From the NCBI GenBank assembly GCA_026770705.1, contig JANJGN010000007.1, positions 168,206,001 to 168,270,000 of the forward strand: a stretch of 64,000 nucleotides of DNA. Direction: 5' to 3'. The DNA is from Isurus oxyrinchus (Eukaryota). Within the stretch, counting starts at the first letter, position 1. Each line of letters opens with the position of its first letter. Made by a program: the position numbers and the translations under genes. This document shows positions 815 to 59,533 of the stretch, one piece after another. A model generated the notes under the pieces. The model saw only the letters and a program-made list of their open reading frames with translations. It was not told the origin of the DNA and did not search any database.

Positions 815-930
815 TTTCTGACAGAGTGGCTTCCTGAAAGGTGAACCTGCCTTATCTCCCTTCATGTGCTGACAAACCTGCTGTGTGTTCTCAGTATTTT
901 CCATTTTTGTTTCAGAATGCCAGCAGTTTC
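815..930 (+). mobile_element. Heavily decayed PLE terminal-repeat (pLTR) remnant
   Basis: Loosely resembles the pLTR copies at 15944-16052 and 57614-57747 (ttctgaca..gaaaggtgaac..gctgacaaacctgctgtgtgttctcagtattttccatttttgtttcaga). Confidence 0.5.
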
Positions 931-1287
931 CTTTCTCTTTTGATCTTGAGTGTGGTTTATTGTGGATCTAGTCTTAATCTTTATTTTTAAATAGATGTTT
1001 TTATTTTATACTTTTTCAGCAACCGCCCCCACCCCCCCACCCCCAAACACAACCCTTACTCTCCACCCAAGAGTCACTTGCTGTTTCACAGATCTCTTCA
1101 GAATGAGACTGGGGTGATTTGATTGTGCCTTTCTGCATGACAGCAACCAAAGCAACTCTGTATTGGAGGAGGGAAGGAACACCCAGCTTTAATTTTCTCT
1201 TCTCTTCCTGTTTTTCCTCCCCTCTGTAATGATTTTGCTACTTTGATAGGACTACCCATGAATCACTGAACTGACAAACCGATTATT

Positions 1288-1682: not shown

Positions 1683-2068
1683 TCTCCCCCAAAGTCTTTA
1701 TCCCAACTATATACATACTCCTACACAAAGCCTCAGACTTCACAGGGTTAGTCTCTGTGATGCCTTGACTAATCTCTCTGATCTAGTCCCGATTTCATTT
1801 TGAACTGCACTGTCTCATTGTTCATACGAGTGTCCTCCACTGAGTGGTTGTTCCTGGTTCCTTGTCTTCATCCGGATATAAATAATGCATCTGAGATTCC
1901 ATTGGTTTCCTTCCCAATGAATCAAGGCTCTTTAGTTCCTTCTGGCCCGTCTCAATTTTAAAAAATCTCAGCTATGGAGCTCTTTCCATTACAATGCCTT
2001 CTTTCTGTTAATCTCATATCCACACTCTCTCCTCAGGCTGTGCACTTTAAAGTCTCATGCTCTGTGCT

Positions 2069-2880
2069 TCAAGTTGAAAGTACGAGCTTGACTGCGTCAT
2101 TATTGCTGCCATGCTTCTTAACTTTCTCACAATCATCTGAAGTAATATTAGGTTGTGGTGTTTGTTGTACAGCTGGAGTTCTGTTCGCAAGCATTTTCTC
2201 ATCATTAGTTCTGATGGTGAGAAACTCTTTTAGTGGTGAGGTTCTGTGGTTAAGAAGGGCTAAGTTAATATCTTTGTCCTTTTTTGTCGATTCCTTGATT
2301 GGTCGAACTCCTCTTCCTGCTTCTCTATTCGACTGAAGATATCGAGGTGAACTAGTCACATGCATGAAATCATTTTACCGTGCAAAGTTATGGAATAGCT
2401 CATTAGCAAACTGAGGACTGTTGCCTGACATCACAATGTCCAGTATGCCATGTGTCGCAAAGATTCTTCTTAGTGATATAATGACTGCCTCCCCCTGGTA
2501 CTATGCAGTCTACTCACTTCAAACCATCTGGTATAGTAATCAAGGAAGATGATGTAAACTTTGCCTTTGAACTTGAATAAGTCCAGCCCTAGGCTCTTCC
2601 ATGGCCCCATAGGAAAGGTAGATGGTGCAAGTGGTTCACTATCCACTGCATACGTAAGGTGATTTGTGATGCACTCTTCAATGGAGTGACCAATGCCTTG
2701 CCACCAAACTGACTGTTGGGCTCTTGCAGTGCGTTTGCTATTCCCAAATGACCTTTATGGGTTTTCTAAAGAATATCAAGTCAAAGTGTTTTAGGGATGA
2801 CTAGTCTGTCGTTAAAAACTAAATAATCTTCATTGATTGCAAGATATATTCTCTGTTCAAAGTACTGATGAAATATTGGG
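2069..2880 (-). pseudogene. Gypsy integrase remnant
   Basis: ORF 2069-2365 HVTSSPRYLQSNREAGRGVRPIK resembles the integrase core HxTSSPxYPQSNGxAERxVxTxK. Upstream, HKGHLGI..RAQQSVWW resembles the zinc-binding region. Confidence 0.85.
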
Positions 2881-3199
2881 CTGTTAGGAGTTTAATACAG
2901 CCATCCATTCTGGCAATACTCTTATTTTGATGCACTCATCATCCTGCTGGTGTGCTTGCTTAATTTCATGTAATCTCTTCTTGTTGGCTGTTAAATGTTT
3001 GGTAATAAACAAAGTATATGCTTCCACTTCCTCAATAAAATTTAAACCTTCATACTTGATAGCTTCCACTGGTATTCTTGACAATGCACCTGCTGTCGTC
3101 TAGTACTTCCTTTGAACATACTCAGTAAATGAATCATATCTCATAAGTCTCTGTCTAAAATATTGAATTTAAGGTGGCATTTTTTGCAATTTCCTTTAC

Positions 3200-4250
3200 G
3201 TTAAGAAGGGCAATCAAAGATTTGTGGTCAGATTCAATTTTAAATTTTAAACCTTAATCCCATGACATGATCAGAGAACTCCTTGCAGACCCACGTGGCT
3301 GCAAATGCTTCTTTCTCAATGGTTGCACACCTCTTCTCTGTATCCATGATAATAAACGTATAATAAACTGGTGGTTTTTGTCTATTTTTTGAACTTGAAA
3401 CAGCACTGCCCCCAAGCCTGTAAGTGATGCTTTAATTGTTGGTCACTCTTGATCATAGTGCACTAGAATCTCTGGTGAATTTAGGAGGTTTTTGATCTTG
3501 TCAAAAGCATTTTGCTGATCCATGTTCCAGCATCACTGTTGACATTGTCCCAACAGCTGTCTTAATGGCTCGTGGATTTCTGTCAGGTTTGGTAGGAACT
3601 TGCCTTCTTGATTGACCATACCAAGTAATCTTTGTAATTCTGTGATGTTTCTCGGTTGTGGAAACTCTGTAATGACCTTGGTTTTCTGTGGGTCAGCCAT
3701 AATTCCAGAAGCTTGCGTAATGTGCCCTAGGAGTGTTACCATTGCTTTGCAAATTCATATTTGTTGTTTAATGTCAAACCTGCTTCTTATAAGACTTTGA
3801 GGACTGTTCCTACATGGCAGTTATGTTCTTCCTTTGAGCAACCATGTACAAGAATGTCGTCCATATGACACATTACTCCTTCCATGCTTTCTAGGGTCAG
3901 AGATACTGTTCTCTGGATTATCTCAGAGTTTGAAGCAATTCTGAATGGTAACCTGTTAAAACAATAACAACCAAATAGGGTGATAAAAATAGTTAGCAAT
4001 CTGGATTCTTTGTCCAGAGGCAACTGTTGAAAGCTGCTGTTGACATCTAATTTTGTGAAGAGGATACTTTTTGCTAATTTGGTGAGACTTTCATCCACTG
4101 ATGCCAACGGGTGGATCTTGCACTCAACTGACTTGTTAAACTGAGTCAAGCCCATTCTAATTGAACCATTAGACTTTGGTACTGTGACCATTCCAGAACA
4201 CCATCAGTATGGTTACTGGACAGATGATCCCTTGGTGTAATATCTGTTCC
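3200..4250 (-). pseudogene. Gypsy reverse transcriptase / RNase H remnant
   Basis: ORF 3787-4191 has TKLDVNSSFQQ, FNRLPF and CHMDDILVHG. ORF 3533-3742 has LLGHI..GIMADPQK..FPQPRNITELQRLLGMVN (RT thumb). Confidence 0.9.
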
Positions 4251-4739
4251 ATATCACTCATGACTTTGTGTAAGAGTGGATGAGGGACCTTCCTCGCTGT
4301 GAAGAGACATATAGGTTTAGCATCTGCCCTTAGGGTTATGTAATATTCTGTTTTCAGCTTTCCTAAACCTGAAAATAAGTATGGGAATTCATTCTTGAAT
4401 ACATAATGGACTGCTCACCTGCAGTTTCATCACCCTTGTAAATCAGGCTGAACTACAAGCACGCTTTTCTGTTCAGTAATTGTGACTTTGGTTCTTTATC
4501 ACAGAGGTTCCATAATTTCTTTATCCTTGTATCTTAATCTTGCCAAATGCTGGCCTATTACTTTTCATGTAGTCCCTCCTGGATCTTGCAATTGCCTGGA
4601 GGATGGTTGTAATTTGATATTTCTTAGTCATTTCATTTCATCAGAAAATACACAGACACCTTTCTCAGTATCTAACTTGAATTCTGTGTGGTGATGATCA
4701 ATTTCTAATTTGATGTTCCTGTAATTATTTTCTGTTTCG

Positions 4740-5600
4740 TTAAACTTCTCCGAAGAGTGTTATTTGTTCTTTCTGTGGCTCTTCCACTTCTTGGATTTTG
4801 TTTGGTTTAGTTGTTATCTCTTTCTTCCTATGAGCTTTAGGAGTTTTGGATCTGCAGACTATTTTAAAATGTCCTAACTTCCCACAGTTATGGCACTCAG
4901 CTCCCCTGCTGGGTATTCTTCCTGCTTGTGCAGGGAAATTGCACACTGAGAACATCACAAGATGGCGGATAGCATGCTTTCCCCTCATTTTTGAGGGCTT
5001 TTGCTTCATTGGGGTTTCTCTTTTTTGTCCGATATCTTGAATGGTTTCACTTACTTTTCTCCAAGGGACATCACTTTCCCCATGAGCAGCCGTTCTGTTT
5101 AGCTTCCTAAACTTGGTCTGCCGCATTATTTGTACTGACTTTAAGAGAGTTAAATCTTCCCTTATTTGCAAAAGATTTGACAGGGTTTCATCTAAGACCT
5201 CAACCACTATACAATTGCGTATTAATTTATCTCTGAGGATCCCATAGTCGCAATTCTCCGCAAGTCTGTACAGGTCATTTATAAATGAATCCATGGCCTC
5301 AACTGGTTTTTGCCTCCCCAATGATCAAATTTATTTGAATACTGACTTTCGAATCGAATGCCTTATACGAGCTTGAAGCCTCATCGATGCCCTGTCTTGC
5401 AATGTCTTGCTATGGCTCCAACTGTGTTAAGTAAAGTACCAACTTGATCCTTCTGATCCTTCTTATGCAAACTTTAAGCTGTTCTGTATCTGGCAAATTT
5501 CTTTTTCTAATTGTCCCAATGTTGAACCTGTTGCAAGCCTTCAGCGCTTCAGAATGGTTCTGGGAGTGGCAATTTGGACTCCTTGCTTACCTTAGGCTCT
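4740..5600 (-). pseudogene. Gypsy gag remnant with CCHC zinc knuckle
   Basis: ORF 4740-5321 has RQKPVEAMDSFINDLYRLAENCDYG..DKLIRNCIV and CHNCGKLGHFKIVC (Cx2Cx4Hx4C). Confidence 0.88.
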
Positions 5601-5617
5601 GGATCTGTTGCTGTTCA

Positions 5618-5942
5618 GTAGTTGCTGAGGGGATATCTCCACTCGTGGGGAAATCTAGAACCAGGGGACACAGTTTCAAAACAGGGGGCCTCCCATTTAA
5701 ACTGGAAATGAGGAGGAATTTCTTCTTTCATAGGGTTGTTAATCTTTGAAATTCCCTTCCCCAGAGATCAGTGCAGGCTGGACCATTGAATATATTCAAG
5801 GCTTTAGTTAGATTTTTAACCTACAAGGGAATCAAAGGTTAGGGGGGCAGGCAGGAAACTGGAGTTGAAGCCACAATCAGATCAGCACTTTTCTTATTGA
5901 ATGGCAAGCTGGAGGGGCTTGAGGCCTTCTCCTAATTCTTTT
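5618..5942 (+). mobile_element. CR1 LINE 3' end, right half
   Basis: Encodes SRTRGHSFK..EMRRNFF..RVVNL and matches the CR1 3' end at 28030-28370. Confidence 0.85.
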
Positions 5943-7714: not shown

Positions 7715-7931
7715 TAACAGAATTTACAGCACAGAAACAGGCCATTCAGCCCCAACAGGTCTACACTGTTGTTCATGCTCCACAGAACCTGTACAAAACA
7801 AATGAGGACGACTTCAATTTTTAACAGAATTTACAGCACAGAAACAGGCCATTCAGCCCCAACAGGTCTACACTGTTGTTCATGCTCCACAGAACCTGTA
7901 CAAAACAAATGAGGACGACTTCAATTTTTAA
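7715..7931. repeat. Perfect 107-bp tandem duplication (includes a CR1 3' tail fragment)
   Basis: 7715-7821 is identical to 7822-7928, with a taa overlap at the junction. Confidence 0.95.
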
Positions 7932-14975: not shown

Positions 14976-15943
14976 TTTTTATATATCCTTTCATATCCGG
15001 AACTGATTTGTATAAATACCATGAAACATTTTCTTTAATCAATTTAATTGACAAGTTATGTATAGGGTTGCCAATTGTGATTAAATCTATTCCTGGAGGT
15101 TTCATCACATGACTTTCCCCCATGCTGTAGCCATTTGTCAGCCAACACCTCCATCCTTGTGATGCACTGCCTTCCTACGCCAATTGGAAAGCAAAAAGAC
15201 TCCAGATTGGATGATAATTGACTATAAGCCACATAGTATTTTTTTCCCATTTTCAATACCTTTATATCTTGAGTATTGTTGAAATATTTAGGTAAGTTAA
15301 GAACAGGCAAGCTATCTATCAAACTTCTCTAAATGTGCATTAAACCCAAGATTGTGCCAGTTTTCATTTCCAAACGCATCGATCATGCTAAAGTGAGTCA
15401 CAGTCCCATGATTGAGCGTGTGTTTATGTGAGATGAGATTGAACAGATTGGTAATAGGGTTACTAATTTACGCCATCTCCTACACTGCGCTTGGTCTGAG
15501 GTGCGCAAATTTCTTTCATTGATTTGATCTGTTTATGCCACCATATTTGTTCAATAGATGATCGCACCATAAACAGTACCCGTTTGAAACATGTCCGCAC
15601 CATAAACTCACCTAAGCAGATGCGGTTTGACAACTCAATTAATGATGCCACTAAATAGGCAACAAATCTCTCTGACTATGTACCCTCAGAAAGTGAGGAG
15701 ATTGTCCTTGCGCATGGTTTCAATTTTTGTGTGCCTTCATCTCAAATCAAACAGGAAGAGGTATTTGCTAACTCCTCTACTTCCAACAATCCCTCCACAA
15801 ACCAGCATCCACTGAGGATGCTGAATCTTTGAAAGTGCGTCTAGCTGCTTTTGTGCACGTATATTGCGGATTCCAAATGATCTGTCTGATTTTCACATGC
15901 AACGCGGATGCCTTAAGACCAACCAGGACATACACATAAGTAA

Positions 15944-16052
15944 GTTCTCAAGTTCTGTCGAAGGGTTATTAGGACTCGAAACATCAAGTCTTTTCTTCTC
16001 TGCCGATGCTGCCAGACCTGCTGAGTTTTTCCAGGTAATTCTGTTTTTGTTT
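15944..16052 (+). mobile_element. 109-bp solo pLTR of PLE family 1 with 15-bp TSD
   Basis: Close reverse-complement match to 23211-23315. catacacataagtaa is duplicated at 15929-15943 and 16053-16067. Confidence 0.92.
15951..15989 (+). ncRNA. Degenerate minimal hammerhead ribozyme motif
   Basis: agtt-CTGTCGA-a-gggtt/attag/gactc-GAAAC-ATC-aagt. The core deviates from CUGANGA at one position. Confidence 0.55.
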
Positions 16053-16948
16053 CATACACATAAGTAAACCTGACAAAGGGATGGGAATAATCATCCTTAA
16101 CAAGTGTGACTATATCAACAAAACGCACTCGTTCTTAATAATGGATCCAAATTTTATTCATTGGACCCGCCCCTCAACATGACTGAACAACATTGCTCGA
16201 AAGTAAGCTAAAAAAAAACTCTTGCTGGACTTGTCTAAGAGTAATGAGCTACTGCGTGATATAAATGATAGGGTTCATCTCCACGGCTCACTGCATGCGC
16301 ATATGTTTGAGCAACAGGTGAAGCTAGCTGTTTCAAGTTGCTACAATGCAATAGCGACATGAGTAGTATTTGCCACTAACAGGATGCAGCCATCAAGCCA
16401 AAAAAAATGTTCTGCCTATTGCACAAATGAGTAATGTGGTATATGAATTTCAATGCCAGTGTGAAGTTAGATATATAGGCTGTACATCCCAAAATCTGGT
16501 GGATCATTATCAAATAACATGTCCCTTCCATTGTTTGCAATGGGCAAGGTACAGACTGTACCCAACCAGCCCACGTTTGCAACACTCAAAACATTGATTC
16601 CAGCATTAGATGTGATTCCATGATAGGACATTTGCTAAATCATCCTCACTGTGCTAAAAATTATGCTGACAACCAATTTAAGATTGTCAGTCGGCCTCAC
16701 AGTGTGGCCCATTTGCATGTACTGGAAGCCACATATAGGGCCCTGTTCTTTGCAGACAGAAAGGATATGTACACACATTGCATCTGTTACAGCAAAACAA
16801 AATAAGTGATAGCCATTTGCTGGTTCATTCGTCAGGGCAATGCTTTGATCAATCAGAGTCAAGCTGCCTGGTTTAAAAGTTCAAACAATGCTTGGCTGTT
16901 AACTGTCAGGCACCACTAACTGGTGCATTCTGCATGAAAATGTCTCTA

Positions 16949-17002
16949 CCAATCAGGATCCACTTGCTAACCAATCAGCATTCTTTTCTCATACAGTATA
17001 AA
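16949..17002 (+). promoter_or_regulatory. Putative Pol II promoter in PLE family 2 pLTR
   Basis: CCAATCAG at 16949 and 16971, TATAAA at 16997-17002, about 35 nt upstream of the HHR motif. Confidence 0.55.
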
Positions 17003-17036
17003 GTTGTTCTTTCCCCAGACATTGGTATTCTTGCGA

Positions 17037-17072
17037 TTGTCCTGATGTGTGCAAGATGAAAAGCTTCGACAA
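17037..17072 (+). ncRNA. Minimal type I hammerhead ribozyme motif (one core substitution)
   Basis: Stem I ttgtc/gacaa (5 bp), core CTGATG(T), short stem II gt-gcaag-at, GAAA, palindromic aagctt stem III, NUH triplet TTC at 17065-17067. Same sense as the PLE ORF. Confidence 0.7.
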
Positions 17073-17532
17073 AATGTCTTTTTTCAGCAATACTCGAGTT
17101 CTGTGCTACCAAACAACTATCTTTATATATGGTAAAGTGAAACCATCTTTTTAAATGGCCCTATGAATTTTCTCCAAGATTGCACACATTGCCTTGGAGA
17201 TTGATCTTCAATTCAGGCCAATCCTGATGGATTAGAAACCCTAGTTATGTTGTTTGATTTGTGGATTTTACTTCCTGAACAGTTGTTTCCTGACCTATGG
17301 GGTGATGCACTAATTATGGGACAGGTTATTCTCCAACAACAGTGGCATTGGAAGGAGAGGAAGGAAGAATTCAAAGGACACATCGCGAAAGGTCGGTGAC
17401 CAGAGTAGACCTAATGACAGGAGTTGCCTACACCTCTGTTCTTTGTTAGGACTTGGACCTCAATATTGTCAAACTTCTTACCTCCCTTATTTTTCCCTTC
17501 CTTCATAAAACCTCATGCTTTTAAAAGCTGTA

Positions 17533-18240: not shown

Positions 18241-18424
18241 CTTGTAGATACAAAAACAAAAATAGCTGGAAAAACTCAGCGACTTGTCTGTTCTTGTAGA
18301 TGTTTGAGGCAGGAAAATTGCCAAGGAAAACTCTCAGAGCAGCTGATTAAGGCACAAGCCAGTGTTTTGGTGCCTGTGTGGAAGAAGTTGGGGTGGAGGT
18401 GACTAATGTTTTGGAAATAATATC

Positions 18425-22240: not shown

Positions 22241-23101
22241 GATTTATCAATATGGACTGTGGTTTTTCCCAATTCTTGTAAATAAATAAAATCCACCCTA
22301 CAATTGGTTGGCATTTTGTTATTGTTTGCAGAAGTATCTATGAATCTCTGTTTGCATGCATTGGCATGTTGGCTTGTAAACATGTGTTTTCTAATATACA
22401 CTGTAAAGTTTTATGCAGGCTATTTCTGGTCACAGAAATGTGTTGCCAAATAATTACTCATGACGGTCATAGACTTAGATTGTGTGGGCTGCATGAGAAA
22501 CTTGCTTAAGTGTGATGCATTGTGCATATGGTTTATATCTATTTCCCTGCCAACTGACTTGGTTTGTCTTAAAAGTAAATGACTGAAATCCACAAAGGAT
22601 GTAAATGATGAGAAAGAATTGCAAGCAAATTTGATTAACTGGACAGGTATTGGTCAGATTTCCAGCATCCACAGTATTTTTCTTTTGACTAAGTCTAATG
22701 GTTCAGGCAGAAGGTGATGAGAAAAAAACACCTCCATCTCAGCCATTTTGCTGCCAGAAATATGCTCTTTCAACAATACAAATTATTTGGTTTATAATGT
22801 AGCACTGCTTGTGCAATTGTTACAAAATTGAATTGTGACTTTATTTTCATTTCTGTACAGAACTTTGACAGAGTCGGGCGGAAGTTCCATACAGACAAGT
22901 AATTTGAATCATACAGTGTAGCTTGCAGACCTTTTGCACCACCAACACAAAACTTTTGGGACACAGAAACATTTACTTCCTGAGGTGGGTTTTGGTGTCT
23001 TTAAAGTCACTTGTGACACTTCATTTCCATCAAGAGATTACTTCCAATGATGTACTTCTCATTGTAGGCAATCTGATAATTTAAACGGGCTGTTAATTAT
23101 A

Positions 23102-23200
23102 ATAAAAGCAAAAAAGTACTGAAAATAGTCAGCAGGTCAGATAGCATCTGTGGAGCAAGAAACAGTGTTAAAATTTCAGGCCGAAGACCTTCCTTCAGTG
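23102..23200 (-). mobile_element. Older pLTR fragment with HHR remnant
   Basis: Similar to 57640-57747. The reverse complement reads ctgaagga-aggtcttcggcct-gaaa-ttttaac. Confidence 0.7.
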
Positions 23201-23210
23201 TTAATTGTAG

Positions 23211-25518
23211 AACAAAAACAGAATTACCTGGAAAAACTCAGCAGGTCTGGCAACATCGGCGGAGAAAAAGAGTTGACATTTCGAGTCCTCGAGTCACCAA
23301 CAGAACTAGGTGAATGCAAGGAAAGGGTGAAATATAAGCTGTGTGTTGTGGGGGGTTGGGTGGGGGGAGAGAAGTGGATGGGGGTGGTGTGGTTGTAGGG
23401 ACAAGGAAGCAGTGATTGAAGCAGATCATCAAAAGATCACACAGACAAAAGAACACATAGGTGTTGAAGTTGGTGATATTATCTAAATGAATGTGCTAAT
23501 TAAGAATGGATGGTAGGGCACTCAAGGTGTAACTCTAGTGGGGGTGGGGGGAGCATAAAAGATTTTAAAATATTTGAAAATAATAGAAATAGGTGGGAAA
23601 AGAAAAATCTATATAATTTATTGGAAAAAACAAAAGGAAGGGGGAAGAAACAGAAAGGGGGTGGGGATGGAGGAGGGAGTTCAAGACCTAAAGTTGTTGA
23701 ATTCAGTATTCAGTCCGGAAGGCTGTAAAGTGCCTAGGCGGAAGATGAGGTGCTGTTCCTGCAGTTTGCGTCGGGCTTCACTGGAACAATGCAGCAAGCC
23801 AAGGACAGACATGTGGGCAAGAGCGCAGGGTGGAGTGTTAAAATGGCAAGCGACAGGGAGGTTTGGGTCATTCTTACGGACAGACCGCAGGTGTTCTGCA
23901 AAGTGGTCGCCCAGTTTACATTTGGTCTCTCCATTGTAGAGGAGACCACATTGGGAGCAATGAATACAGTAGACTAAGTTGGGGGAACTGCAAGTGAAAT
24001 GCTGCTTCACTTGAAAGGAGTGTTTGGGCCCTTGGACGGTGAGGAGAGTGGAACTGAAGGGGCAGGTGTTACATCTTTTGTGTGGGCATGGGGAGGTGCC
24101 ATAGGTGGGGGTTGAGGAGTAGGGGGTGATGGAGGAGTGGACCAGGGTGTCCCGGAGGGAACGATCCCTACGGAACGCCGACGGGGGGGGGGGGTGAAGG
24201 GAAGATGTGTTTGGTGGTGGCATCATGCTGGAGTTGGCGGAAATGGCGGAGGATGATCCTTTGAATGCGGAGGCTGGTGGGGTGATAAGTGAGGACAAGG
24301 GGGACCCTATCATGTTTCTGGGAGGGAGGAGAAGGCGTGAGGGCAGATGTGCGGGAGATGGGCCGGACACGGTTGAGGGCCCTGTCAACGACCGTGGGTG
24401 GAAAACCTCGGTTAAGGAAGAAGGAGGACATGTCAGAGGAACTGTTTTTGAAGGTAGCATCATCGGGATGGAGGCGAAGGAACTGAGAGAATGGGATGGA
24501 GTCCTTACAGGAAGCGGGGTGTGAGGAACTGTAGTCAAGGTAGCTGTGGGAGTCGGTAGGCTTGTAATGGATATTGGTGGACAGTTTATCTCCAGATATT
24601 GAGACAGAGAGGTCAAGGAAGGAAAGGGAAGTGTCAGAGATGGACCATGTGAAAATGATGGAGGGGTGGAGATTGGAAGCAAAATTAATAAATTTTTCCA
24701 AGTCCCGACGAGAGCATGAAGCAGCACCGAAGTAATCACCGATGTACCGGAGAAAGAGTTGTGGAAGGGGGCTGGAGTAGGACTGGAAAAAGAATGTTCC
24801 ACGTACCCCATAAAGAGACAGGCATAGCTGGGGCCCATGCCTGTACCCATAGCCACACCTTTTATTTGGAGGAAGTGAGAGGAGTTGAAGAAGAAATTGT
24901 TCAGTGTGAGAACAAGTTCAGCCAGACGGAGGAGAGTAGTGGTGGATGGGGATTGTTCGGGCCTCTGTTCGAGGAAGAAGCTAAGGGCCCTCATACCATC
25001 CTGGTGGGGGATGGAGGTGTAGAGGGATTGGACGTCCATGGTGGAGAGGAAGTGGTTGGGGCCAGGGAACTGGAAATTGTTGATGTGACGTAAGATGTCA
25101 GAGGAATCACGGATATAGGTGGGAAGGGACTGGACAAGGGGAGAGAGAAGGGAGTCAAGATAACGAGAAATGAGTTCCGTGGGGCAGGAGCAAGCTGACA
25201 TGATCGGTCTACCGGGGCAGTTCTGTTTGTGGATTTTGGGTAGAAGGTAGAAGCAGGCCGTCCGAGGTTGGGCGACTATCAGGTTGGAAGCTGTGGGAGG
25301 AAGATCCCCAGAGGAGATGAGGTTAGTGACAGTCCTGGAAACAATGGCTTGATGTTCAGTGGTGGGGTCATGGTCCAGGGGGAGGTAGGAGGAAGTGTCT
25401 GCGAGTTGATGCTCAGCCTCCGCGAGGTAGAGGTCAGTGCGCCTGACAACAACAGCACCACCCTTGTCAGCGGGTTTGATGACAATGTCAGGGTTGGACC
25501 TGAGAGAATGCGTGCCCC
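23211..25518 (-). mobile_element. Penelope-like element family 1 (Neptune-like), 5'-truncated, with 15-bp TSD
   Basis: cagtgttaattgtag at 23196-23210 and 25519-25533. RT, Cys-rich linker, GIY-YIG, pyrimidine-rich 3' UTR and pLTR end are all present. Confidence 0.95.
23681..25518 (-). pseudogene. PLE RT + GIY-YIG endonuclease ORF, inactivated
   Basis: IVIKPADKGG, LLPKIHK, GRPI, MDVQSLYTSIPH, GVAMGTGMGPSYACLFMG. The catalytic motif reads RYIGD in a shifted frame. Also CPHKRCNTC and NLVYCIHCSQCGLLYNGET. Two compensating frameshifts; the correct middle frame is ORF 24168-24701. Confidence 0.92.
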
Positions 25519-25832
25519 CAGTGTTAATTGTAGCTGTGATTGACTTTCTTTTGTGAATCCTACGCTTCTCAAGGTTTGAATGGCATTCATGCTGTGCGTG
25601 GGCCGTTTTTAATTTAGTCATCTGGTATCAACATCAAGCACTTGCAGGTCAAGTGTACCGTGCTTAGATATGTGAAAATTTCTCCTTACTCTGGTCAAAG
25701 TGAGCGTGATCCCCACTTTTAAAAGAACACCCATTCAGTGCACAAGCGTGGCATTGTTCCATTTCCTACATTGGCCATCCCGTGTTGTTCAGGAGATTAA
25801 GGATAATATTAGAATAATAGAAGAGGCTTATA

Positions 25833-44957: not shown

Positions 44958-45661
44958 GGCCCGGAATTTGTGATAAGAATAATGCTAATCATGACTATAA
45001 AGGCAGAAATTTGACAGCAACTTCTGGAATACTCACATATGCAGTTAAATGGGAAAATCCAGAAGTTGCTGTCAGATATTCTGCTCCTCCACAGGGTGCA
45101 CTGTTGCAGTTATTGTTGATAGTCTCAATACTAAAATGACTGTAGAAGCCCGAACTTGCCCATTATTTGTGTACTAATAACAGCTGAAAAGCTTAGGGTG
45201 GTTTAATTAGGAATAAGTGAACATTTAACAGCACAATAAGTGAAAATTATTGCTGAGCAACCTCCCTGACCTTAAAAAATATATATATTTTTTATAAGTG
45301 TGGTGTCTCGTTCCATCAGGAGAAAATTAGTGTTGGAGATCTTTGAAAAATATATTTTCATTACTTTTTCTGGCTGTCTCTTTTCATTCTCTTCCTTAAT
45401 TCCATCTGCACATCTAGTTTTTCTATGCATCATTTGAATCCAATCTATATTTCTTGCTTTATACTTCCTGGTTCAGAATCTGCATGTCTCAGTAAAGAAA
45501 CAACAACCTGATCAGGTCACAAATGTGTTGTAACTAGTGCAATGTTGAAAAAGGTGCTAGTTTAGAGGAAATCTCTGCTGACAAGCCTGTGCTATTCAGC
45601 TGCTATCAGTGAGGTAAATGGCAAGTGCTGATCCTTTGCCACTGAGAGCAAAACCCAGGTC
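44958..45661. mobile_element. Possible old MITE
   Basis: Weak TIR pair ggcccggaatttg / caaaacccaggtc. No clear TSD. Confidence 0.3.
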
Positions 45662-56926: not shown

Positions 56927-57613
56927 ATGTTTTCTTTGCAAGTACAGATTTAATTCACTTTTGAAAGTTACCATTGCATTTGCTTCCACCATCTTTTCAG
57001 ACTGCGCATTCCAAATTATCATAACTTCCTGCGTAAAAAAAAGTTATCCTCACCTTTTTTTGCCAGTTACCTTAACTCAATCTGTCTCCACTAGTTGCAA
57101 CCTTCCTGCTAGTGGAAACAGTTTTCATTGTCTACTCTACAGAAAACCCTCATAATTTTGAGTACCTGTTTTATTACATGGATGAATTAATTGATATTTT
57201 AATTTTTTGTTTGCTAAAGACTAGTAAAGTTGACAGGAAGACTGATTCATTTTTGACCCTCTTTAGAATCTGTAGTCTGATTTCACCAGTATTATTGTAG
57301 TGCTTTTAAATTAGAACTATTCTTTCTAAAAGCTAAAATAATATGATCTAATGTCACTCATGCAGCTTTACAGATGGATACAAGCTCACTCACTGTCCAA
57401 CCCTTTCCCCACTCAGTTTGCGTTACAGTCACCTCTGGGTCAGAGCTTGATCATTCAAGCCTCACAGCAGAACTTTAAGCACACTATCAAGTTTGGCGAT
57501 TCCGCCTATGAACGAGGAGTGCTACCCTTTCATCTTTCAGGTGAAATGTTAAGCCATGTCTCTATCTGCCTGTTCAGGTGCCATGTCCTTCTCCAAAGAA
57601 CACAATTCTTGTG

Positions 57614-57747
57614 CAAAAGCGAAATACTGGAGACACCGGAAATCTGAAATAAAATCAGAAAATGCTGGAAATATTCAGCAAGGCTGGCAGCGTCTGTGAA
57701 GAGAGAAACCGAGTTGACGCTTCAGGTCGATGACCTTTCGTCAGAAC
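57614..57747 (-). mobile_element. Solo pLTR insertion (about 134 bp)
   Basis: pLTR body aaatgctggaaatattcagca..ggcagcgtctgtgaagagagaaacc, with a degenerate duplicated flank acaattct..tgtg. Confidence 0.8.
57711..57747 (-). ncRNA. Minimal hammerhead ribozyme motif (best-preserved core)
   Basis: Reverse complement: gtt-CTGACGA-a-aggtc/atc/gacct-GAAG-C-GTC-aac. CUGANGA is intact, stem II is a perfect 5 bp, the triplet is GUC, and GAAA has become GAAG. Confidence 0.72.
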
Positions 57748-59023
57748 AATTCTACCTGTGTTCTAGCCAACATTCTCCCTTCAACCACAGCATCAGAACA
57801 AGGATTATTCACCTCGAGGCTGTTTGTGTGATTTTCCTGAGTGTTTTGGGACGCATGTGAGAGACCTGATGAGCCGTGACATGAATGAAAGCTCTTTCTT
57901 TACTCTGCAATGTTTCTTAACTGTCAGCCATTTCGAAGTAGGGAGGAAGCAGAGTGAGATGTGAGGCAGAGGTGGGAGGGAAATTAGAACATGAGTCATT
58001 CCGGAGATATATCTGACCATCATCTGAGACGAGGTTCAGAGTGTCTTTGAGGACCCTGTCATTGGATGTCTGCTCTCTGGCTCATAATTAGCAAATGAAC
58101 TGAGCTCCATTGAAATATGTTTTTATAAGCACTATGGGGATTATTTAGGAGATGGGAGATGACACACAGGTTATTATATTAAATTGCCATTGTTTGTTTA
58201 ATGTTTCATATTTTTCCATTTCAAGAGAAATTGTAGATTAAAAGAAAAGTAAGGGTGAGGGGAGAAAATAAAAAGGATGGGGAAAAAATCTGTCCCTTAA
58301 AGATTATCACCAGTTTCCCATTTTTAAAAAAATCAGCCCATTTCCAGAGACTAACCTTCAACAGCTTCCTTTTATTTTTCAGTGCATTTTTAAACAAAAA
58401 TATTAAAAGATATTATTGCTGCCAACATCATAAGGGAGAACAGCTCGGATGAGTTACTGAAGCACGTAGTGTGAGAGAGCTGCATTAATATAAATAGAGC
58501 TACAATCATTAAGCAGGGGTGCTTCAGTGATTGTGTCACGCCAACTGTACATGTTAATTCCGCTCCTTCGCACTGTTGAGCTCAGTAACTCCTCCAAGTC
58601 AATTCCCCTGATATCATCTATACTCCCTATTTAACCCCGCCTATACAAAATGTTGAACTGACTGAATCGGGTATGAAGACATATAAAATAATTTTAAAGT
58701 TAACGAGACTTCTTTGTAACTGATTTTTTTTAATGGGTGCTAATTTTACGTTTCCATATGCAAAATAGTTCACTGTAAGCTCAAGGCTTCTCTTGCAAAA
58801 TAGGTTCTCTCAGTGATTCTCCCTTTGAAAATTGGTGGCCCATGTTATATACAGATGGGCTATGACGGCCAGACTTCCTGTTGTAAATAGGTCCTGGTAG
58901 TGAATTTTCTGCTTAAGATCGATGTTGATCTGCAAATCTCACTTTGCGAAACAGTTCTTGAAGGTTGAGCTGCTACGTTTCAGTCAGTCTTGGCCTGTAT
59001 GGGGGTCAAGCATTCAAAACCTG

Positions 59024-59363: not shown

Positions 59364-59533
59364 ATAAAAGCAAAATACTGCAGGTGCTGGAAATCTGAAA
59401 TAAAAACAGGAAATGCTGGAAAAACTCAGCAGCGCTGAAGAAGAGTCATACGGACCCAAAACGTTAACTCTGTTTCTCTCTCCACAGAGGCTGCCAGACC
59501 GGTTGAGTTTTTCCAGCATTTTCTGTTTTTACC
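59364..59533. mobile_element. Inverted (two-orientation) pLTR insertion with 10-bp TSD and HHR remnant
   Basis: tcaaaactat at 59354-59363 and 59534-59543. Arms aaatgctggaaaaactca / tgagtttttccagcattt. CTGAAGA-a-gagtc/atacg/gaccc-AAAAC-GTT at about 59435-59465. Confidence 0.85.

Follow-up and report, generated by a model that had tools for sequence, protein, structure and literature searches.

A recurrent 5′ boundary beside the hammerhead ribozyme in short Penelope-like element insertions of a shark genome

The 64,000-nucleotide stretch of Isurus oxyrinchus DNA considered here (the window) has the composition of animal DNA (GC 40.8%, CpG observed/expected 0.29) and contains several short insertions of Penelope-like elements (PLEs) that begin beside the core of a hammerhead ribozyme. 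The role of the hammerhead in EN+ PLEs is stated as unclear in the accessible text of PMC8557442, and the question raised by this locus is what places the 5′ ends of such copies there: the ribozyme's own cut, a stop met by RT, the end of an RNA template, or ordinary truncation. The boundary pattern is real, albeit seen in a small sample and in known elements. It is read here, with a confidence just short of even, as the 5′ end of an RNA that would lie at stem I, RT being primed internally at the tail and running off the template.

Copies were collected with blastn and with an nhmmer profile made from seven window copies, which gave nine 5′ ends at eight sites, E and G being without TSDs (Table 1). 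Copies A to E are themselves in the profile, the best hit in the reversed window was no better than E 1.3, and four weak nhmmer hits were inspected, judged unconvincing and excluded from the nine ends; copies shorter than about 30 nt escape detection. Offsets are numbered from the C of CUGA, and the null model for TSDs consisted of 400 random flank pairs. Both searches confirmed homologous copies at the places where the initial annotation had seen the hammerhead layout recur (15951, about 23165-23197, about 59435 and about 816), and where it had listed three TSD-like flanks (15 bp, 10 bp and one degenerate), B has an exact 15-bp TSD, D an exact 10-bp TSD, C an 11-bp TSD with one mismatch and A an 8-bp exact repeat. 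The 3′ ends of the copies fall into two classes, one including and one lacking a tail of about 34 nt, the PLE tail being defined in the available parts of PMC11167929 and PMC8557442. In the head-to-head insertion D, the two arms are identical at 29 of 32 positions where they overlap, and the tail is present on one arm only. Discounting an 8-bp tandem duplication at the junction of copy B would move its offset to about -3.

Table 1. Positions of the insertions and motifs in the window, and 5′ ends of invertebrate PLE copies used for comparison (fractions refer to random flank pairs)
Feature	Coordinates	Strand	5′ end relative to CUGA	Flanking repeats and remarks
Copy A, solo pLTR 3′ module, hammerhead to tail, 130 nt	57616..57745	-	-1, to -3 with microhomology	8-bp exact repeat, 57746-57753 and 57602-57609, 10/400; longer allowing a 3-nt gap
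Minimal type I hammerhead motif of copy A	57713..57747	-		C of CUGA at 57744; predicted cut 57716/57715
Optional PLE tail of copy A, about 32-34 nt	57616..57647	-		blastn and nhmmer
Copy B, tail-less, 109 nt	15944..16052	+	-11	15-bp exact TSD, 15929-15943 and 16053-16067, 1/400
Copy C, tail-less, 95 nt	23104..23198	-	0 (exactly at CUGA)	11-bp TSD with one mismatch, 23199-23209 and 23091-23101, 2/400
Arm D+ of head-to-head insertion, tail-less	59435..59531	+	0, possibly -5	
Arm D-, with tail	59366..59432	-	about +65	counterexample
Whole D unit	59364-59533			10-bp exact TSD, 0/400
Copy E, old and decayed, tail remnant	816..940	+	homology from about -2	no TSD
Copy F, 43 nt	18250..18292	-	about +60	counterexample; 9-bp TSD, 1/400
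Piece G, tail only	22654..22687	+	about +100	counterexample; no TSD
Long 5′-truncated PLE	23211..25518	-	-2215	15-bp TSD, 25519-25533 and 23196-23210, 0/400; overlaps left TSD of copy C
L015, sense (5′) arm			-3 to -6	at edge
L034, 5′ pLTR			-9	at edge; 20 nt from contig start
L015, inverted arm			+9	elsewhere
L017			-46	elsewhere
L052			-125	elsewhere
L068			-173	elsewhere
L007			-202	elsewhere
L025			about -1130	elsewhere

Copy B is inserted into another decayed PLE. The site that copy B occupies in this second family, at about 15600-17130 (+), is the KPDKG motif; the family carries a pLTR and a decayed hammerhead of its own, the latter at 17042 with the palindromic sequence GAAAAGCUUC, and no further copy of it was found in the window. 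Other elements of the window include decayed LTR-retrotransposon remnants at about 1960-5330 (-), in which a gag zinc knuckle, RT and integrase-like frames were recognized by eye, a perfect 107-bp tandem duplication at 7715-7931 that is either recent or an assembly artefact, and an imperfect inverted repeat at 44998-45091 with weak mir-194 matches on both strands, far under the gathering score.

On sequence grounds, the short copies are the 3′ end of a PLE pLTR and belong to the family of the 2.3-kb RT/GIY-YIG element, here called the long copy. Its ORF is frameshifted and broken, with a DKG motif, an RT, a CX4CxxC linker and a GIY-YIG-like end (stop at 23681-23683), and its pLTR occupies 470 nt (23211-23680), of which the last 81 nt are 91% identical to copy B. 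In the 648-aa frame at the long copy, the first 36 codons are flank. The best named relatives of the long ORF are bamboo-shark proteins (66-70% identity), and the long copy aligns with relatives from the RT through the C-terminus. A domain search with the window ORF returned RVT_1 only (E 0.002, below the cut-off) and no GIY-YIG hit; in a relative, P0005, GIY-YIG is above the cut-off and RVT_1 below it. Between RT and EN, the linker reads CPHKRCNTC, and a CX2-5CxxC linker in this position is a Neptune-clade feature according to the accessible text of PMC8557442. Judged by such features, the anatomy of the long copy is that of a Neptune-type PLE, and the ORF relatives, the pLTR 3′ end, the optional tail, the inverted arm and the TSDs are those of an EN+ Penelope-like element.

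Pairwise identity among the short copies is 60-77%. Copy B is 81% (global) or 91% (local) identical to the long copy and 60-74% identical to the other short copies, none of which has a long partner in the window; the low identities, together with the grouping of B with the long copy, indicate that the boundary occurs in at least two lineages. The long copy and copy C are adjacent, separate insertions, each with its own TSDs. Both were inserted at the same target, the 15-bp TSD of the long copy containing the left TSD of C and C's first three bases, which suggests a reused endonuclease hot spot.

Both the nature of the pLTR and the layout of a minimal type I hammerhead, as first proposed for the locus, were borne out, the minus strand from 57747 to 57713 reading gtt-CUGACGA-a-aggtc/atc/gacct-GAAG-C-GUC-aac as claimed. 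An intact CUGANGA/GAAA/NUH core is found in none of the six motif-covering window copies. Copy A has GAAG for GAAA (A15.1 replaced by G) and an A-U first pair in stem II, copy B has CUGUCGA and AUC, copy C has CUGAAGG and GAAAU-UUU, arm D+ is without G12, the core of copy E is decayed, and the decayed hammerhead of the long copy (C at 23303) has CUGUUGG and a damaged stem II. A6 is present in four of the six and A9 in three, and U at core position 6 is common to B and the long copy. This CUGU for CUGA (15955-15961 and 23297-23303) is possibly a subfamily variant rather than decay. Among the loose-end consensuses of whole-genome contigs, intact GAAAC-GUC and GAAAC-GUU occur in the family, the consensuses stopping short of CUGANGA.

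Stem positions are paired in 90% of 170 cells, against 25-35% when the stems are slid, across five window and 12 invertebrate motifs, a test that is partly circular since 12 of the 17 rows were picked by a descriptor requiring stems. A scan with covariance models, as suggested at the outset, gave no Rfam hammerhead match at E≤5 in the window or at E≤10 in 57600-57800. The strong matches of a second model, R1, were its five training copies only, with two weak ones (E 0.006 and 0.009), and it missed copy E and the motif at 17042. Free-energy folding did not single out the motif (z -1.9 to +0.4 over seven folds), and in the minimum-energy fold of copy A CUGAC is paired with GUCAA and the active core is not formed.

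Five of the nine 5′ ends in the window (A, B, C, D+ and E) lie at -11 to 0 of CUGA, four of these (A, C, D+ and E) within -2 to 0, and the remaining four (F, D-, G and the long copy) lie away from the core. The cleavage site, predicted at +29 in A and at +31 in B and D+, coincides with none of the nine ends. The initial annotation had placed the starts 2-11 nt upstream of the core, the actual offsets being 0 to -11; its statement that the short copies start at the ribozyme describes the first five ends and omitted the other four.

The chance of such clustering was estimated with an exponential truncation model with a 30-nt detection floor, tail offsets and means of 30-1000 nt. Under this model, finding five of the nine ends inside the landmark, a window of 13 nt, has p≤5e-5; for a window of the same width placed anywhere no closer than 60 nt to the 3′ end, the value is p≤0.0028. 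An unrestricted scan for five of nine ends in any 13 nt gave p 0.20 (mean 40 nt) and 0.045 (mean 70 nt), these values being high because steep truncation clusters the shortest copies. All of these p values are guides, not proofs, as no one exponential fits 34-nt and 2.3-kb copies alike. The boundary is common to copies with a tail (A, E) and without one (B, C, D+) and is therefore set by position and not by cDNA length, and TSDs or an inverted arm adjoin it in A, B, C and D, so that it is not just the limit of homology detection. A common 5′ boundary of this kind is unlikely under simple truncation.

Beyond the window, contigs from four of 24 runs (two DNA and two guessed to be RNA) were mapped on 23091-24290, with about half of each DNA run and at most two samples covered. 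The family is very abundant, with 142,800 and 100,394 contig records from the two DNA runs. The alignments stopped at 23265-23266, a lesion private to the long copy and short of the boundary. Immediately 3′ of the core, the depth (2.6e6 and 2.2e6) did not exceed that of the upstream pLTR and ORF (mostly 1-7e6), and in the long-copy subfamily there is no sign of a large short-copy excess by contig depth, which is a poor measure. In the guessed-RNA runs the depth of the pLTR tip was far above that of the ORF; this lead was rejected, the measure being poor, the sample single and the long loose flanks pointing to copies that lie inside host transcripts. Both DNA runs also contain a low-depth head-to-tail joint from 23211 to 23465/23471, corresponding to a 255-261-bp pLTR unit, which may mark a small array of retrozyme type, or a partial tandem, at another place in the genome.

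Among metagenome loci with related ORFs, sense hammerheads were found by a strict descriptor in 22 of the best 80 of 449, and by a relaxed descriptor, applied to 11 chosen loci, in two more. Two of eight invertebrate partner 5′ ends inside contigs are at the edge (Table 1), in a set chosen for long copies from the best 80 of 449; L008, L011, L021, L028, L036, L037, L039 and L072 were excluded from this count because of contig edges or homology limits. Both pLTRs of one invertebrate PLE (L068:1676 and L068:5100) carry a hammerhead with the U3-A8 core variant, a form described in the available part of PMC4209133. In L072, a PLE ORF is followed at 5031-5687 by units of about 246 bp in tandem, which include a type I hammerhead at 5301 and look like a non-LTR retrozyme. 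Motif pattern scans gave no matches in viral and metagenome contigs, viral contigs contained no protein relative, and nine GTDB matches, barely longer than a 21-mer (best E 1e-4), were taken as chance.

The preferred reading, in which the boundary is an RNA 5′ end, is built on the observed anatomy, TSDs, offsets and two 3′ ends, from which we infer the RNA end and its cause. The window copies would be dead-on-arrival insertions of a Neptune-like PLE, whose protein would nick A/T-rich DNA and prime RT internally at one of two tail sites. The priming site would lie at the pLTR-ORF junction, close to the 5′ end of the ordinary transcript, so that the default product would be a short run-off cDNA ending where the RNA begins. 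That RNA end would coincide with the 5′ strand of stem I in the hammerhead (-5 to 0), either as the start site of an internal promoter or as the point to which a 5′-to-3′ exonuclease would trim the RNA, up to a protein-bound, uncleaved ribozyme. The free 3′ end of the cDNA may then anneal to the target by microhomology (A, B) or may fold back to give head-to-head arms (D, L015); antisense self-priming has been proposed for head-to-head units in the accessible text of PMC3846280.

For the anole element PAc, the available portions of PMC11167929 describe internal initiation, two RT start sites and a requirement for 172 nt of ORF, and the occurrence of window copies with and without the tail matches the two start sites. 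According to the same portions, PAc hammerhead mutants still insert, cleavage being dispensable for insertion in vitro; cleavage requires protein, uncleaved RNA is the main substrate, and RNA-seq reads neither begin nor end at the cut site. An initiator-like YYANWYY at -4 in the long copy counts for the start-site option. Across 21 motifs, YYANWYY was found in three (p 0.47) and BBCABW in four (p 0.32), while TCAKT at -10 to -3 was found in four against a background of 3% (p 0.003), this being one of three patterns tried on families that are not independent. In D. virilis the start site precedes helix I by about 120 nt, a distance made up of 46 nt and a 75-nt intron (accessible text of PMC2377424 and PMC4209133), which counts against a start site at the ribozyme edge. 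Of the eight uncensored invertebrate ends, the six that lie off the edge count against the RNA-5′-end reading as such, and the L015 sense arm and the 5′ pLTR of L034 count for it.

Two further sources of such an end were considered. A splice acceptor at the boundary (the long copy has a pyrimidine tract and AG at -4/-3) is a minor lead only: most of the 16 listed invertebrate motifs are, by eye, without AG at the boundary, the pLTR is in any case rich in pyrimidines, and RT would continue into exon 1. The D. virilis intron ends at helix I, as given in the available text of PMC2377424 and PMC4209133. Cutting by a type III or trans fold at a point upstream of CUGA was rejected by inspection, as the stem I hairpin lacks room at 0 to -2. 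A more specific version of the RNA-end reading, and a doubtful one, is that the minimal hammerhead of PLEs is mainly uncut and serves as a protein-bound 5′ boundary that halts 5′-to-3′ decay and defines a small RNP template, from hammerhead to tail, the run-off cDNA of which would be the commonest insertion.

It is unlikely that the boundary is instead a stop or processing point defined by the RNP, with an RNA that extends upstream and an RT that stalls, or an endonuclease that resolves the product, just past the core. This spot would be held by a protein subunit or by cDNA snap-back, and the reading is a modified form of the initial idea of arrest. The PAc hammerhead is protein-assisted and its protein is a predicted dimer nicking both strands (PMC11167929, available portions), and fold-backs with a microhomology of 3 nt at -5 or -6 are one way to read the D and L015 junctions. 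Arrest at the ribozyme fold, as originally suggested, fits poorly: RT travels 3′ to 5′ and would meet the fold first at about +35, so that a plain structural stop would leave ends on the wrong side and not past the whole core, and no fold would be left after the 3′ strands had been copied. The long copy, moreover, passed the site and extended for 2.2 kb.

One or several SINE-like non-autonomous masters, full length from hammerhead to tail and mobilised in trans by the PLE protein, form a rather unlikely source. None of the six ends outside the long-copy subfamily (A, C, D+, D-, E and G) reaches upstream of the core, in line with what a fixed master would give, the 3′-tip contig depth is about five times that of the ORF (18e6 against about 3e6) with sister-subfamily loose ends, and non-autonomous PLE derivatives have been published (PMC8557442; bioRxiv 2026.07.22.740005; accessible texts). 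However, copy B belongs with the long copy, apart from the other short copies, and the identities among the short copies imply several lineages. For PAc, sequence lying downstream of the priming site is needed by the protein, and the solo copies are without it; no tRNA-, 5S- or 7SL-derived head was found in an Rfam search at copy A, the unit beginning with the hammerhead. The SINE-like small RNA envisaged in the initial annotation is weakened in its single-master form, B being nearest to the long copy, and survives in the part that is the best reading, a discrete RNA 5′ end.

Chance and ascertainment, meaning ordinary heavy 5′ truncation in which the conserved ribozyme is the easiest homology to see, would make an improbable account of the boundary. 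The small number of ends, the post hoc pattern and the p values of the unrestricted scan leave room for it, as do the undetectability of very short copies and the mostly scattered invertebrate ends, but the probabilities at the landmark and in windows away from the 3′ end, with tail offsets included, speak against it, and the boundary is fixed by TSDs in three copies and by the inverted arm in a fourth. Retrozyme units defined by cleavage, that is, hammerhead-cut monomers that are circularised and reinserted, are very improbable: the intact GAAAC-GUC and GAAAC-GUU in the family's loose-end consensuses and the few head-to-tail joints of the pLTR unit would suit them, but a type I cut about 30 nt downstream of CUGA gives a product without the core that the window copies keep, none of the nine ends shows the expected start at +29 to +31, the three arrays that TRF found in the window include none of this unit, and minimal motifs were inactive as monomers (PMC4209133, available part).

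The window copies are members of the class of EN+ Neptune-type 5′-truncated or solo-pLTR insertions (PMC8557442, PMC3846280, PMC11167929), whose truncation is frequent and variable in the accessible texts, where no favoured 5′ boundary at stem I is named. They follow the layout of the metazoan minimal type I hammerheads of PMC4209133 (available part), with CUGANGA, one unpaired base, stem II, GAAA, a loop-less palindromic stem III and a short stem I, and differ from them by core lesions in all six window copies. Such hammerheads were described there as mostly single and genome-scattered and were ascribed to truncated PLEs (Cervera and De la Pena 2014, PMC4209133). Non-LTR retrozymes, which also exist as monomers, are likewise short, non-coding and pLTR-related, with a type I hammerhead and larger TSDs (PMC7229834; bioRxiv 2026.07.22.740005; accessible texts), whereas the window copies are without tandem units, measure 95-130 nt against about 170-400, have a minimal rather than a canonical motif, and end off the cut site. 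Minimal hammerheads and solo truncated PLE copies are already known, and the parts seen here are ordinary and decayed. A literature search of texts rather than figures, with few subscription papers, found no description of such a boundary at stem I.

In LTR retroelements, priming near the 5′ end of the RNA gives minus-strand strong-stop DNA, a short run-off cDNA with a fixed end. The window copies may, by analogy, work like strong-stop run-off products, although here the product would be target-primed and genome-fixed, with no tRNA primer and no true LTR.

If insertions do cluster at stem I's front edge rather than where the ribozyme cuts, shark assemblies would read out the in vivo end of the template. 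Such clustering, if true, would argue for uncleaved RNA in transposition and would tie the ribozyme to the definition of the RNA 5′ end, and the boundary bears on the origin of pLTRs and of solo 'retrozyme monomers'. Were the hammerhead indeed a boundary element, genomic copies would form a fossil map of the RNA end across animals, and the conservation of a nearly inactive ribozyme would be explained.
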